Shown: one piece after another, positions 7,812-44,229 of the stretch
How the letters are laid out: each line of letters starts with the position of its first letter
Numbering within the stretch: the first letter of the stretch is position 1
Sequence record: MK373784.1
Source of the DNA: Escherichia phage vB_EcoM_MM02
Length of the DNA stretch: 64,000 bases
Strand: one strand, 5' to 3'
Translations under genes and position numbers: made by a program
Notes under the pieces: generated by a model
Database searches by the model: none
Told to the model about the DNA's origin: nothing
What the model saw: only the letters and a program-made list of their open reading frames with translations

Positions 7812-7856
7812 ATTATTTCCTCATTAGTTAATTCATTTTATCATCCGTTTATAAAG

Positions 7857-7882
7857 CAAAAAAGGAACTCCGAAGAGTTCCT
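7857..7882 (-). terminator. Rho-independent terminator (aggaactc-cgaa-gagttcct hairpin followed by T-run on minus strand)
   Basis: Perfect 8-bp stem with 4-nt loop followed by TTTTTT on the transcribed strand, overlapping the stop of the upstream small ORF. Confidence 0.6.
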
Positions 7883-22683: not shown

Positions 22684-23685
22684 TTATTTCAGTAAAGTAA
22701 CTTCCGAGATTTCCTCCCAACCATCTTTATCAGTTGAAATAAAATCTGCTACATAAAGAGCCGTACGTAATGATACATTGCGAAGACGAGATACGTTAGC
22801 CTTCATCCAGGACAATGCTTTATACGTTTCTGCATCAGTCAGACCACGTTTCTGCATCATGTCAGTAGATAATATTACATCTTCAACTCGAACCATAATC
22901 TCTTCATTAGAGTGTACTCCAAGGTCGAGATACACTGAACGAGATACTAAAGCTTGAAGGTGTGGAGCAAGTTTCGAACCCCGTTCTAACTCTTTATCGA
23001 TATCAACGTTTGTAATGAAAACGATAGTACCTTCAAACTCAAATTCTTTATCAATACCCTTATCCTCGAGATAAGATGACGCAGTGCTCCAACAAACTTT
23101 GCGTTTATCTCCGGTGTCTAATGCTGCTTTAAGAAGATTCAAGATGTCCATATCTGAGAATACGTCAACGTCGTCGATTAAGAGAACGCTGTCTGCATCA
23201 CGGTTGAGCCAAAGTTGTTCGTAAAGGCCAATACCAGAGATTTTACCATTAATGCTTTTGTATTTGATGAAACCGTTATCATTAGCATTATTAAGTGCTT
23301 TATCCAGAGAATACGTCTTACCAATACCGGCTGCACCTGAAATAATGAGTGAACGAATTTTGCCATCGATAATGCCATTCGTCATCATGTTCATTACTTT
23401 AAAGCGTTTGTTGATACGAGTTTTCATATCTTCAGTGCTTTCAACAACTGCAACTGGTGATGTCTCAACTCCTTCCATTACGATGTCTGATTTGAAGACC
23501 CATACTCCACGTTCAGAACCATCAATCATAACGAAAATTTTACCATCACCTAAGTGGGAACATTCAGGATTAAGCTTTGCCGGGAACCAGGTCTTTGTGG
23601 CAACATAAGAACCAGAGATTTCGTTATTACGATAGATACCTTTTTTGATTTGAATGTTGAACATTTTATTCTCCAATTTACTCAT
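22684..23685 (-). CDS. Predicted P-loop NTPase (AAA-like)
   Basis: 333 aa; Walker A GAAGIGKT and Walker B VLLIDDVD after a ~110-aa N-terminal domain. Confidence 0.6.
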   Translation of the reverse strand: MSKLENKMFNIQIKKGIYRNNEISGSYVATKTWFPAKLNPECSHLGDGKIFVMIDGSERGVWVFKSDIVMEGVETSPVAVVESTEDMKTRINKRFKVMNMMTNGIIDGKIRSLIISGAAGIGKTYSLDKALNNANDNGFIKYKSINGKISGIGLYEQLWLNRDADSVLLIDDVDVFSDMDILNLLKAALDTGDKRKVCWSTASSYLEDKGIDKEFEFEGTIVFITNVDIDKELERGSKLAPHLQALVSRSVYLDLGVHSNEEIMVRVEDVILSTDMMQKRGLTDAETYKALSWMKANVSRLRNVSLRTALYVADFISTDKDGWEEISEVTLLK

Positions 23686-23782: not shown

Positions 23783-24049
23783 TTACTTATCGCACTTAGC
23801 AACATAATTAGGCATATCACAGAATACGGAGCGAGTAACTACTCGTCCCTTTGACCATGCTTCAGTTGCTTGTCCGGCCGTGCTATTAATATAGCTTGAT
23901 TTGATATTCTCAATACCCTGAGAATGTGATGCATTTACCGAACCGTTGGAAGGCCCAGAAGACTGGTTACCACCAGCTCCTGTACCTGTGGTAGCACCAA
24001 CAGAGAATGCCATCATTACTGCGAATAAACCAATTACTAATTTTTTCAT
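23783..24049 (-). CDS. Hypothetical secreted small protein
   Basis: 88 aa; N-terminal signal-peptide-like MKKLVIGLFAVMMAFSVGA; Gly/Ser-rich. Confidence 0.45.
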   Translation of the reverse strand: MKKLVIGLFAVMMAFSVGATTGTGAGGNQSSGPSNGSVNASHSQGIENIKSSYINSTAGQATEAWSKGRVVTRSVFCDMPNYVAKCDK

Positions 24050-24080: not shown

Positions 24081-25067
24081 TTATTTATAGTAAGAATTAT
24101 GATTTTCGAGATAGACTTGCTCAAGGAAATCATCCCAGAAACTCATATCTACTTTTTGTTGCATACCGTTCTTAGCGGCTTGTTCTGATGCTTGTTCTAC
24201 CTGGTCAACAATGTCTTCCAGGAATTCTTGTACAGTTTTAAACGTATGTTTACCAAGCTTAACATCGAGAATAAATGGAGCATCCTGAAGTGGGTAAACC
24301 AGGTCGCCGGTTTTGTAAATTTCCAATAATTGAAGTCCACCACGACATGCATGACTCAATGCTTTCCAGTCAATACCTTCGTTAGCTTCTGCCTTACGAG
24401 CACGTTCACCATAGTTCTCTTCCAGTTTAACCAGGATGGCATTGAACTCTTTATTGGTTAACGTATCTTGGAATTTACGGTCTAACAGATTATAGAATGT
24501 TTGCTTACCTGTTTTCTCGTTTTCGGTTTCAACCCACGAAGCAAATTCACCTACAGGCAGAACATTCTTCATATGTGATAAACGAATTACTGCACCATTA
24601 TCAAAGTATTGTCCCCATTCATTAGAACGTTTAAGGGCTTGACGAAGAACAGCCAGTCGAGAACCCTTGACGCCGTATTTAGAAGCTTGCTTACGGACAT
24701 ACCCTAAATAAGATTTCATGTTAGTGGTATAGAAACGAGACCTGTTATCTTGAATATATTTCCATACATCAGGCAAATCAGATTTAACTACTAGACTTTG
24801 TGGAGTGTGAAGCATATCTAATGCGACGGTTTCACCATCCGCAGCTAGTTTAAAGAAATATTTGAGACTATACAACTCATGGTCCACGTCGTCTTTTGTG
24901 TTCTTAGAAGATGTGTTATTCGTGTTCTTGCTCATGTGTTCTTTAACGTTACCAGTCAAGATATCACGAGCATGAGGGACATAAATTTCTTTAAAATCGA
25001 CGTCAGATTCGGGAGTAGACGTTCCGTAAAGGTGGCTACCAAAGTAAGCCTTAACAATCGTTTTCAT
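24081..25067 (-). CDS. Predicted Pol-beta-superfamily nucleotidyltransferase
   Basis: 328 aa; N-terminal FGSHLYGTSTPESDVDF fits the hG[GS]x9-13DhD NTase signature; start overlaps the stop of the upstream membrane-protein ORF. Confidence 0.55.
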   Translation of the reverse strand: MKTIVKAYFGSHLYGTSTPESDVDFKEIYVPHARDILTGNVKEHMSKNTNNTSSKNTKDDVDHELYSLKYFFKLAADGETVALDMLHTPQSLVVKSDLPDVWKYIQDNRSRFYTTNMKSYLGYVRKQASKYGVKGSRLAVLRQALKRSNEWGQYFDNGAVIRLSHMKNVLPVGEFASWVETENEKTGKQTFYNLLDRKFQDTLTNKEFNAILVKLEENYGERARKAEANEGIDWKALSHACRGGLQLLEIYKTGDLVYPLQDAPFILDVKLGKHTFKTVQEFLEDIVDQVEQASEQAAKNGMQQKVDMSFWDDFLEQVYLENHNSYYK

Positions 25068-25540
25068 TATTTAGCCTTATATTCAAGAGTAGGACAGACT
25101 TTTTCTTTACGAGCTTTAAGGTATTCACCTATTAATGATTTCTTACGTTCAATAGGCTCAAGTCCATTTTTAATTCGTTCTTGGTTTTGTGCAATGAGCT
25201 CAATTTCTTTATAATATTTTCTGTCGGTATATTTGTCTAACAACCAAGACGGACCAATTACCAACCCGGTAGCAATAAAAGCCATGACTGCTACCATTAA
25301 AATGCCTACACCAATTGAGGCTGGAACTAATGTCCATAGACTGCTAAAAACAAAGAATTTAGTTAAAATTTCCTGGCCAATGATTGTGACTGCTGCTAAA
25401 ATCGCAAATCCAATAATTGAAACAGCCAATACAGGGATTAACGTTTTCCAAAAATAAGCACACAACGTTTTCGGACGATTCCATGTACTATTGAACGCGG
25501 CATAAATTTTAAAGTGCCAAGAGTTTTCATTGATAATCAT
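25067..25540 (-). CDS. Hypothetical membrane protein (about 3 TM helices)
   Basis: 157 aa; translationally coupled to the NTase gene. Confidence 0.5.
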   Translation of the reverse strand: MIINENSWHFKIYAAFNSTWNRPKTLCAYFWKTLIPVLAVSIIGFAILAAVTIIGQEILTKFFVFSSLWTLVPASIGVGILMVAVMAFIATGLVIGPSWLLDKYTDRKYYKEIELIAQNQERIKNGLEPIERKKSLIGEYLKARKEKVCPTLEYKAK

Positions 25541-25550
25541 AATAATTTCC

Positions 25551-26084
25551 TTATTTCAAGGTTGGGATAATAGAATCAAGATAAGCTTTAAGAGCAACTG
25601 CTTCATCTTTGTCTAATGTAATGATATGTTGACGAAGGTCATCAATTTGGCGAATAACTACGACATCACCATCTTCATAAGAAGGATTAACGCCTAGGAC
25701 TGTTGTATAGTCAGGGCGGTCCTGATTTGTAATAAAAGCATTACGGCATTTAGCCCATTGAAGTTTGGCCTTTTTGGCTGTTTCAGATTCCATTAATTCT
25801 TTCACCTTAGTGACGAATGTTTTCCAATTATTAATAGAAAAACATTCGTCTTCAGTTTCGATATTGGCCGCGTTGTAAAGACCAGGATAAAAACGAACTT
25901 GGAGGTCTTCACCAATGTTAATTACCTCTCGACGACGTCCAGACGGATTGAGTTTCAAAATCTTATCCAGTTCCATAGGAAGAATAGTAGCAGCATCATC
26001 TTCTTGTGTCAGAACATACACATAACCACGTTTTTCGATACATAAATCACCGAACAACTCGGTTGTTTCAATTACAGTTTTCAT
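25551..26084 (-). CDS. Hypothetical protein
   Basis: Likely start MKTVIETTEL at 26084; the track start is a TTG four codons upstream. Confidence 0.45.
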   Translation of the reverse strand: MKTVIETTELFGDLCIEKRGYVYVLTQEDDAATILPMELDKILKLNPSGRRREVINIGEDLQVRFYPGLYNAANIETEDECFSINNWKTFVTKVKELMESETAKKAKLQWAKCRNAFITNQDRPDYTTVLGVNPSYEDGDVVVIRQIDDLRQHIITLDKDEAVALKAYLDSIIPTLK

Positions 26085-26085
26085 A

Positions 26086-26265
26086 TTATTCACCAATTAA
26101 AGTTTCAACAAAATTCACCAAAGCATTCTGGCAAGCGTCAACCTGATTTTCATAAAAATCTCCGTTATCATTTACCGCATGATAAGCTACGTCATTCAAA
26201 TCTGAATCAGCTTCACGTAAGTCACGGATAAGGTCCATCAATTTATTAGCTTGTTCACGGGTCAT
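26086..26265 (-). CDS. Hypothetical 59-aa protein (below the track cutoff)
   Basis: MTREQANKLMDLIRDL...; start overlaps the stop of the next small ORF. Confidence 0.3.
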   Translation of the reverse strand: MTREQANKLMDLIRDLREADSDLNDVAYHAVNDNGDFYENQVDACQNALVNFVETLIGE

Positions 26266-26383: not shown

Positions 26384-26433
26384 TTTGTTTTGATAGGACT
26401 ACTATAACATAGTCCTACCAAGATGTAAACTAC
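26384..26433 (-). promoter_or_regulatory. Promoter/stem-loop cassette (GTTTAC, taggacta/tagtccta IR flanking TTATAGT)
   Basis: 50-mer identical to 45091..45140. Confidence 0.55.
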
Positions 26434-28680: not shown

Positions 28681-29159
28681 TCAACAATCACAATTTCTAG
28701 TTTAGTAGAATACGTATCTAAAATCTCTTCGATGACATCCCAGTTTCCACCACCAATACCTGCACCAATTCTTGGCATATAAATTACAGGCTTTATTATC
28801 TTATTCTTTCCGAATTCATTTAATTCTATTATACAATTCATTAAAGCAGAGTACTCAAAATTAGGTCCCGGCTCAAACTGTGTATAAAGATTAAAGCAAT
28901 AAGCTTTATGGGTCTTAAAATATTTTTCATAAACCGAATAAGTCCCTAGTTTAGACTCGTCTCCGAATTCGGTTTGAAGTTTATCGGCTTCCAGAATTTT
29001 TGGATAAGCCTTTGCTAATTGTCCTGCCACACCCGCGCCCATTGTATGAAAACAATTACACCCATGAGCAATATTATTACCTTTAGAAAACAGGGCGACA
29101 ATATCGCCCTTGATATAGTTTTTAATCACTTGCTGCAAGTCCTCTATTATAAGAGTCAA
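28662..29159 (-). CDS. Macrodomain protein (TARG1/DarG-like ADP-ribose hydrolase fold)
   Basis: 165 aa; GDIVALF...IAHGCNCFHTMGAGVAGQ resembles the GD(I/L)F...AHC...MGAGIA signature as I recall it for TARG1-type macrodomains. Confidence 0.6.
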   Translation of the reverse strand: MTLIIEDLQQVIKNYIKGDIVALFSKGNNIAHGCNCFHTMGAGVAGQLAKAYPKILEADKLQTEFGDESKLGTYSVYEKYFKTHKAYCFNLYTQFEPGPNFEYSALMNCIIELNEFGKNKIIKPVIYMPRIGAGIGGGNWDVIEEILDTYSTKLEIVIVDWEPLL

Positions 29160-43479: not shown

Positions 43480-43556
<77 letters not shown>

Positions 43557-43559
43557 GAT

Positions 43560-43634
43560 TGGTGACCCTGGCTGGTTTCGATCCAGCTACCTATCAGTTA
43601 TGAGCTGACAGCTCTCCCATTGAGCTACAGGGCC
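43560..43634 (-). tRNA. tRNA with CAT anticodon (Ile2 or Met type), CCA encoded
   Basis: Hand-folded cloverleaf: acceptor GGCCCTG/CAGGGTC, D stem GCTC/GAGC, anticodon loop CTCATAA, T stem GCTGG/CCAGC, 3' ACCA. Confidence 0.7.
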
Positions 43635-43713
43635 TAAATAACTTTCTATTATGAAAGGCACTTTAGAGCACCTTTGGTAATAGAGGGTATGAATTAATAA
43701 TAACACATAATTC

Positions 43714-44229
43714 TTAAAGCAAATCAATCATTTTAACAGTCGGCAAAACGATTTCTTCTTCAATATAAGCAAATTCAACACATTCAACTACACGCAAGAA
43801 ATCATAATCATAATATTCAGAAGCATGGCCAAGAATATCAATGAGACCTTCTGATACTAAATATCCATTCTCATGGAACAGGTCGAATACACGCGATTCG
43901 TCTTCTTCAGATTTATTACCGAGGTCGACTTCAATATCAAAGACCTTTTTAATGAATTCTGGATAAAGCTGGTCTGAGAACAGTCCTTCAACCAAGTATT
44001 CATAGATTAAAAGCGAACAATCACTGAATAGTGTATTACCACAGTAACGTTCAGCTTTAGTGCTGGAATGACGGCTCTTAAATTTCTTTAAGAGATATTT
44101 AAACTGTTGGAGCTCATGCTCTTCTACACCAAATAATGTTTTGGTTTTATAGTTGTCGCCGTCATTTTCCCAAGTAGTGACATCAATTACGTAACCCTTA
44201 GGAATTGTACTGCCTAAACAAATATTCAT
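43714..44229 (-). CDS. Hypothetical acidic protein
   Basis: 171-aa ORF. Confidence 0.45.
   Translation of the reverse strand: MNICLGSTIPKGYVIDVTTWENDGDNYKTKTLFGVEEHELQQFKYLLKKFKSRHSSTKAERYCGNTLFSDCSLLIYEYLVEGLFSDQLYPEFIKKVFDIEVDLGNKSEEDESRVFDLFHENGYLVSEGLIDILGHASEYYDYDFLRVVECVEFAYIEEEIVLPTVKMIDLL

Follow-up and report, generated by a model that had tools for sequence, protein, structure and literature searches.

The defeat of a host anticodon nuclease by RNA repair was first demonstrated in phage T4, where Pnk and Rnl1 carry it out. The RlaP family was reportedly named by Burroughs and Aravind in 2016, who are said to have already put forward the same idea of RNA repair that is considered here. 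We analyzed a 64-kb window (the whole stretch of DNA under study) from the T-even-type phage (Tevenvirinae) Escherichia phage vB_EcoM_MM02 (MK373784.1), and in particular a pair of overlapping genes, one encoding a nucleotidyltransferase (NTase) of 328 amino acids (aa) and the other, immediately upstream, a membrane protein of 157 aa. The 328-aa gene is a known gene, the counterpart of T4 nrdC.11 in the known RlaP family, to which the window adds one more ortholog. We consider it fairly probable that this template-independent Pol-beta NTase is involved in RNA 3'-OH repair and that the membrane protein is a separate neighbor.

Two RlaPs from Pseudomonas, PfRlaP and PaRlaP, have been characterized in a preprint of December 2025 (Carruthers, Fatma & Huang, 2025; PMC12776372). 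They add one or two nucleoside monophosphates (NMPs) to the 3'-OH of RNA, and not to DNA or protein, with little specificity for the nucleoside triphosphate (NTP) and a preference for Mn2+ (PMC12776372). Moreover, they favor the 3' end of a cleaved-tRNA mimic and partly restore the aminoacylation of a repaired tRNA lacking one nucleotide of the anticodon loop, and RlaP has been proposed as an antidote to nucleotide-trimming ribotoxins such as RloC (PMC12776372). The crystal structure of PfRlaP comprises an N-terminal NTase domain and a C-terminal helical domain, the last helix of which packs back on the NTase domain (PMC12776372). In the same study, T4 NrdC.11 was placed in cluster 5 of the PF10127 sequence similarity network (SSN) and labeled 'of unknown function'. 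A survey of jumbo phages has reported RlaP in phages alongside RNA ligases (PMC7824862), and the idea that trimmed RNA is repaired is already in the literature (PMC7824862, PMC12776372).

The two genes of the pair and the catalytic motifs of the enzyme are located as follows; all genes of the neighborhood are on the minus strand.

24081..25067, minus strand: gene of the 328-aa RlaP-family (PF10127) Pol-beta nucleotidyltransferase, ortholog of T4 NrdC.11 (open reading frame, Pfam, PHROG 388, AlphaFold2 model)
25067..25540, minus strand: gene of the 157-aa inner-membrane protein, PHROG 944 (open reading frame, PHROG, AlphaFold2 model, hydropathy and charge)
25065..25069, minus strand: TAATG junction, in which the stop of the membrane-protein gene and the start of the nucleotidyltransferase gene share one base (read directly from the sequence)
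25035..25043, minus strand: codons F9-G10-S11, the hG[GS] nucleotidyltransferase motif (conservation; aligns to G37-S38 of canonical RlaP)
24996..25004, minus strand: codons D22-V23-D24, with the metal-binding carboxylates of the DxD motif, where strand beta-2 begins (aligns to D49/D51 of canonical RlaP; strand 23-30 of the model)
24882..24884, minus strand: codon D62, probably the third catalytic carboxylate (on strand 61-67; paired with D88, which is invariant in canonical RlaP)

The junction of the two genes reads …AAATAATGAAAACG…, and the N-terminus of the enzyme is MKTIVKAYFGSHLYGTSTPESDVDF. Both open reading frames (ORFs) exist on the minus strand with the lengths and coordinates originally predicted. 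They are genuine genes, as the tblastn search yielded matches in 1520 phage records for the nucleotidyltransferase and in 1207 for the membrane protein. The region of ∼2.4 kb around the pair is 97–98.6% identical to Escherichia phage NicPhage and to Shigella phage JK45, a Tequatrovirus and the nearest relative in RefSeq.

Compared over its full length, the 328-aa protein shares 79% identity with T4 NrdC.11. Phage JS09 encodes a protein that is 100% identical to it, and the identity drops to 27–35% in phages of Caulobacter, Sinorhizobium, and Phaeobacter (tblastn). Like its T4 ortholog, it is encoded between MobD.1 and NrdC.10 on the same strand, and the N-terminus is shared; T4 NrdC.11 is longer (336 aa) owing to an internal indel. 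PF10127 (RlaP) is the sole significant Pfam family for this protein, matching with 49.1 bits against a cut-off of 23 (E 7.7e-13), residues 6–136 corresponding to profile positions 23–144 of 249. The same family assignment was precomputed for all 240 of the 240 homologs listed, and PHROG 388 ('nucleotidyltransferase') matches the protein with E 2e-125. The PADLOC and NCBIfam searches gave nothing significant for either the 328-aa or the 157-aa protein. The function had initially been considered undetermined, which is out of date at the level of the family, given the reported RlaP biochemistry and the naming of T4 NrdC.11 as a member (PMC12776372). In many deposited T4-like genomes, the NrdC.11 ortholog is labeled 'thioredoxin'; as it has no match to a thioredoxin family, this label is apparently an error spread from the gene name nrdC.11.

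To characterize the conservation of the catalytic site, we used an alignment of 124 homologs, ∼35% identical to the 328-aa protein. G10, D22, and D24 are invariant (124/124), S11 is present in 123 of the 124 sequences, and position 62 is occupied by D in 109 and by E in 15; E64 and D84 are also near-invariant acidic residues. The invariant or nearly invariant basic and aromatic positions comprise K26, N56, Y123, Q127, Y131-G-x-K-G-x-R137, Y219-G-x-R222, D233-W-K235, H239, and R242. As judged from the alignment, the invariant basic residues K26, K55, K134, R137, R222, K235, and R242 would fit a nucleic-acid substrate.

The AlphaFold2 model built on this alignment has a predicted local distance difference test score (pLDDT) of 91.1 and a predicted template modeling score (pTM) of 0.81. 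It contains an N-terminal Pol-beta-type sheet, in which D22 and D24 lie where strand 2 begins and strand 61–67 carries D62. The NTase core is followed by helices, a three-stranded insert (residues ∼176–200), and then a helical C-terminal domain (helices 205–326). We considered D84 as the third catalytic carboxylate and rejected it, since it lies in a helix, whereas D62 pairs with the invariant D88 of canonical RlaP. The placement of the protein in the Pol-beta superfamily and the hG[GS]...DhD signature on which it was originally based are both borne out by the Pfam score, the conserved carboxylates, and the confident model. The catalytic carboxylate triad (D22, D24, and D62), the absence of which would have spoken against an enzyme, is present and conserved, so the protein looks catalytically competent, as far as conservation and the model allow one to judge.

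The window protein scores above the curated Pfam cut-off, carries the hG[GS], DxD, and third-Asp motifs in positions alignable to those of RlaP, and has homologs in RNA-repair operons; in its model, a helical domain comes after the NTase domain. The profile–profile comparison (hhalign) of the NrdC.11 clade with canonical RlaP (probability 52%, E 1.4e-4) pairs G10-S11, D22/D24, D62, and D84 with G37-S38, D49/D51, D88, and E110, respectively.

The genomic context of the homologs is informative with respect to the substrate. A library-wide profile search with the NrdC.11 clade yielded 8331 cluster representatives (E ≤ 1e-30 for 1726), and among these the matches of the best 150 listed all span essentially the full length. 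A scan of bacterial genomes then yielded 80 loci with full-length NrdC.11-type genes (30–52% identity; the gene was called in 67), and we clustered the neighbors and annotated the recurrent ones. A canonical RlaP of ∼268 aa (PF10127, E 1.7e-64) is encoded immediately downstream in 31 of the 67 loci, usually with a 4-nt overlap. RtcB was found in six loci, Ro60/TROVE in five, Pnkp in five, and Hen1 in four; RtcB, Pnkp, Hen1, or Ro60 is present in 12/67. With the RlaP paralog and these enzymes as neighbors in bacteria, the NrdC.11 clade sits in bona fide RNA-repair operons.

The paired-RlaP loci are found among L103–L172 of our set (e.g., L123:5001-6784, L114:2338-6802, and L104:5001-8158), often in the vicinity of Pnkp-Hen1, RtcB, or Ro60, and an operon with two nucleotidyltransferases suggests a division of labor or a heterodimer. 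In the T-even phage, the NrdC.11-type copy stands alone in this window, with no canonical RlaP paralog.

Domain fusions point to RNA 3' ends as the substrate. The NrdC.11-type domain is fused to HD_4 in P0363 and P0162 (∼495 aa), and in P0497 (672 aa) it is combined with PolyA_pol_RNAbd and HD, Pfam domains found also in bacterial CCA-adding enzymes. Class II CCA-adding enzymes are likewise template-independent nucleotidyltransferases acting on RNA 3' ends, and the P0497 homolog carries its PolyA_pol_RNAbd and HD domains at the C-terminus. The window protein, however, belongs to a different NTase family: it lacks HD, and no Pfam match to the PolyA_pol head (PF01743) was found at E ≤ 0.1. The bacterial paired-RlaP operons and the HD fusions together support an RNA 3'-end substrate.

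For the phage enzyme, we infer an RlaP-like chemistry, an RNA target, and a role against host nucleases. Two metal ions, probably Mn2+, would be held by D22, D24, and D62, and the enzyme would move one or two NMPs from NTPs to the 3'-OH of a broken RNA. The most plausible substrate would be a tRNA of the host or the phage, after cleavage and trimming by an anticodon nuclease or another host ribonuclease. A working full-length RNA would then be rebuilt by the polynucleotide kinase/phosphatase and RNA ligases of the phage, whose genes lie elsewhere in its genome. The enzyme would thus be a non-essential accessory function of early infection, an adjunct to the T-even Pnk/Rnl pathway, and the membrane gene would belong to the same tightly packed early transcription unit, the one-base overlap resulting from the compaction of T-even genomes. 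The block nrdC.11–mobD.3 is one of several large fragments that T4 mutants have lost while staying viable (PMC9825161), and hence nrdC.11 is dispensable in the laboratory.

Several observations weigh against this assignment. Searching the 64-kb window with RNA ligase, Pnkp, RtcB, and kinase sequences (tblastn) gave zero matches, and therefore the local context does not support RNA repair. Unlike the canonical RlaP genes, the phage nucleotidyltransferase gene has no adjacent ligase gene; in JK45, Rnl2, Pnk, and Rnl1 are encoded at 112–142 kb, at a distance of 55–85 kb. The protein is also longer than the characterized RlaPs (328 aa vs. ∼250–270 aa). Only its N-terminal ∼130 residues (3–135 in the hhalign comparison) can be aligned to canonical RlaP, and the C-terminal half, including the beta-sheet insert at ∼176–200, cannot; hence the choice of substrate could differ. 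Moreover, the assayed enzymes PfRlaP and PaRlaP belong to SSN cluster 1a, and NrdC.11 to cluster 5 (PMC12776372). Finally, the membrane gene lies near the enzyme gene in 46 of the 86 phage loci that we surveyed, which is compatible with some functional link.

Two of these points, the lack of an adjacent RNA-repair gene in the phage and the C-terminal half that cannot be aligned to the characterized RlaPs, could also be taken to mean that the enzyme nucleotidylates a target other than RNA. Such a target could be a small molecule, as for aminoglycoside nucleotidyltransferases, a protein (AMPylation), or a DNA or nucleotide signal made de novo, as by HalB or CD-NTases, in the service of host takeover or counter-defense. 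The best Foldseek E-values of the model (1.6e-3) are indeed those of ANT(4') kanamycin nucleotidyltransferases, which share the layout of an NTase domain followed by a helical domain. However, the likeness is weak. Across the Foldseek matches, the template modeling (TM) scores are 0.25–0.35 and the identity is 9–17%, with only the core shared; for ANT(4'), which acts on small molecules, the values are ∼0.26 and 9–10%, with no family-level sequence match. Searches of the PDB sequences with the 328-aa protein, the phage profile, and the canonical-RlaP profile gave zero relatives, in a copy of the PDB without the PfRlaP coordinates. By contrast, RlaP is the only family matched significantly, the same full-length clade occurs in operons with RtcB, Pnkp-Hen1, and Ro60 and is fused to PolyA_pol_RNAbd and HD, and the characterized RlaPs reject DNA and protein acceptors (PMC12776372). 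We therefore regard a non-RNA target as rather unlikely.

A second explanation takes the pair as a true two-component module, in which the membrane protein anchors or gates the NTase or is regulated by it. The pair would then be an analog or antagonist of a Hailong-type system, or a tether of RNA repair to the inner membrane. The TAATG overlap could provide translational coupling of the two genes, and it is the feature that gave rise to the idea of a coupled module. The overlap is present; still, it is no more than expected by chance for this genome, as 38 of the 101 pairs of same-strand neighbors in the window overlap, and in 25 of these the overlap is exactly 1 or 4 nt long. Since overlaps of starts and stops are the norm in the window, the overlap is no marker of a dedicated module.

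To estimate the linkage, we surveyed 86 phage loci carrying the nucleotidyltransferase for a gene of the membrane family within 4 kb. It overlaps the start of the enzyme gene in 14 loci, including phages whose enzyme is just ∼68% identical to that of the window, and lies 0.3–1.8 kb upstream, separated by one to three genes, in 32. In all these 46 loci, it shares the strand of the enzyme gene. No gene of the membrane family lies within 4 kb in the remaining 40 loci, which include T4, RB43-like, Aeromonas, KVP40-like, Cr30, and phiM19 phages and environmental contigs. It was found near the enzyme in none of the 80 bacterial loci. As a control, we considered other neighbors: NrdC.10 is found near the enzyme in 38 of the 86 loci and MobD.1 in 30. 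Given that these unrelated neighbors are kept at similar rates, the linkage of the membrane gene looks like inherited T-even synteny.

In T4, the order of genes at the locus is MobD.1, mobD, and NrdC.11, so that a promoter-less HNH homing endonuclease gene, mobD, occupies the slot of the membrane gene and overlaps the start of nrdC.11, with no membrane gene at the locus. This slot upstream of nrdC.11 is polymorphic among the closest relatives of T4 (with enzymes 78% identical to that of the window): T4 (L002:3238-5011) has mobD, and L011, L012, and L058 have the membrane-gene allele, with a 4-nt overlap.

Sampling by tblastn and inspection of contigs showed the membrane family in other contexts outside T-even phages. 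In Pakpunavirus, its gene is followed by those of an Rnl1-type ligase and a P-loop kinase, and in Biquartavirus, it lies one or two ORFs ahead of the gene of a PHA02142-type RNA ligase, so that in two further lineages it adjoins RNA ligases. However, it is also found beside Nampt/Prs in other lineages and among unannotated ORFs in ICP1, Vibrio 1.170.O, Aeromonas phage 65, GAP32, and TDDLMA, where neither a nucleotidyltransferase nor a ligase is close by. Intriguing as they are, the ligase contexts were noticed post hoc and are diluted by the others, and we downgraded a specific association of the membrane protein with RNA repair once the lineages with Nampt/Prs or unknown neighbors had come to light.

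Hailong is a bacterial anti-phage system in which a membrane effector is controlled by an oligonucleotide that the NTase makes; HalB, a protein of ∼217 aa, reportedly makes protein-primed oligo-dA. The likeness of the window enzyme to HalB is restricted to a 121-residue NTase core with 17% identity, with no match at the level of sequence. HalA, the transmembrane channel effector, is large and tetrameric, has a crown and an oligonucleotide-binding domain on the cytoplasmic side, and differs both in size and in layout from the 157-aa hairpin (PMC13434031), and the model of the latter has no match in the PDB, HalA included. The operon linkage of the window pair is not conserved, and PADLOC gave no significant match. 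For these reasons, we exclude membership of the pair in Hailong and consider a functional analogy unlikely.

The evidence for a two-gene module is thus weak, and the dedicated module proposed in the original prediction is not upheld. We consider a true two-component system to be unlikely; genome compaction together with shared ancestry, and not an obligate partnership, is the simplest explanation for the coupling of the genes. A narrower version, in which the PHROG-944 protein is a dedicated partner that recruits or regulates RNA-end enzymes at the inner membrane through a cytoplasmic Cys/His mini-domain, or forms a Hailong-like signaling pair of a transmembrane protein and an NTase, seems to us distinctly improbable. 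Its partners would be NrdC.11/RlaP in T-even phages, Rnl1 and a kinase in Pakpunavirus, and a PHA02142-type ligase in Biquartavirus. If true, it would put tRNA repair at the place where membrane-entering or membrane-associated ribonucleases act.

There is very little chance that the pair is a toxin–antitoxin or abortive-infection-like element (a MenT/AbiEii-type toxic NTase or an MNT-type antitoxin) serving as a selfish or exclusion cassette: the minimal NTase fold is common to these families, MntA of NCBIfam gives a faint match (E 0.058), and MNT/HEPN structures appear low in the fold-search lists, but the MntA match has 13.3 bits against a cut-off of 60, NTP_transf_2 (E 0.09) is also under its cut-off, neither HEPN nor another cognate partner is encoded next to the gene, PADLOC gave no match, the 328-aa protein has a large conserved helical domain, unlike minimal NTases, and its gene is single-copy and syntenic across T4-like phages and occurs in cellular RNA-repair operons. 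Among the functions originally listed for this fold, tRNA or RNA repair is the one favored by the evidence.

The 157-aa protein is a separate, phage-specific, conserved small inner-membrane accessory. It matches PHROG 944 (E 3.8e-53) and has no Pfam, NCBIfam, or meaningful PADLOC match. The family comprises just 291 proteins in a large protein collection, none with a Pfam domain, and looks phage-only. Three transmembrane helices had been predicted, which is doubtful. A Kyte–Doolittle scan identified two strong hydrophobic segments (37–55 and 76–94), and among 54 family members there are two such segments in 43 and three in 11. The AlphaFold2 model (pLDDT 75) is a two-helix hairpin (26–62 and 68–124) bringing the N- and C-terminal segments together, with short strands at residues 2–4 and 153–155, and both termini carry a net positive charge. 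Given the hydropathy, the positive termini, and the hairpin model, two transmembrane helices with both ends predicted to be cytoplasmic (N-in/C-in) are more likely. Foldseek comparison of the model with the PDB yielded only noise, nothing being better than E 2.9.

The conserved motifs of the family are S7-W8-H9 near the N-terminus, L26-C27-x-Y29, which immediately adjoins the first hydrophobic segment on its N-terminal side, and K147-x-C149-P, a basic motif near the C-terminus. The S-W-H, C-x-Y, and K-x-C-P tail motifs recur across phages as far apart as ICP1 and Pakpunavirus. Provided that both tails face the cytoplasm, the two Cys and the His could form a small, possibly metal-binding domain.

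The genes around the pair follow the order 59-aa ORF, MobD.1/y05I, membrane protein, nucleotidyltransferase, 88-aa signal-peptide ORF, and NrdC.10. The neighboring features are as follows.

25551..26096, minus strand: MobD.1/y05I-like gene, the upstream neighbor, 10 nt from the membrane gene (Pfam T4_y05I_N and T4_y05I_C)
23783..24049, minus strand: 88-aa signal-peptide ORF (PHROG 2243), between nrdC.11 and nrdC.10
22684..23685, minus strand: NrdC.10 ortholog
26401..26429, minus strand: candidate sigma-70-like promoter (TTTACA, 17 nt, TG-TATAGT; consensus scan), weak, the number of such sites not being above the shuffled expectation

The 88-aa ORF is an addition relative to T4, which has just a 114-bp gap at that place. 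A homolog was found in 3 of the 86 related loci, and the ORF looks like a recent insertion of a small gene. The NrdC.10 ortholog resembles P-loop/AAA families weakly (AAA_22, AAA_16, and nSTAND3) and has an HTH_37-like stretch at the C-terminal end, with all of these matches under the Pfam cut-offs; where it accompanies nrdC.11, it lies within ∼2.3 kb and almost always downstream. ARAGORN identified only two tRNA genes in the window, tRNA-Arg(TCT) and tRNA-Met(CAT), at 43480–43634 on the minus strand, and an Rfam scan of the 22–28 kb region yielded zero RNA families.

The sigma-70-like candidate could drive the gene run that holds the pair. Site counts in the sigma-70 and terminator scans of the region were not above those expected from shuffling. 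No MotA-box middle promoter was found closer than this candidate, and none directly upstream of the membrane/nrdC.11 pair. In the whole window, MotA-box-like patterns (TGCTTnA, 10–14 nt, TAnnnT) numbered 18, with 5.9 expected from shuffles; examples are 28823–28848, 43697–43721, and 7835–7858, all on the minus strand.

In practical terms, the analysis corrects the recurrent 'thioredoxin' annotation and shows that the membrane neighbor is not a fixed partner of the enzyme. If NrdC.11 restores nucleotides removed by 'smart' ribotoxins such as RloC, it would supply a missing third step of the Pnk/Rnl1 pathway. Judging by the number of phage records with a tblastn match to the enzyme, this would be a widespread means of counter-defense.

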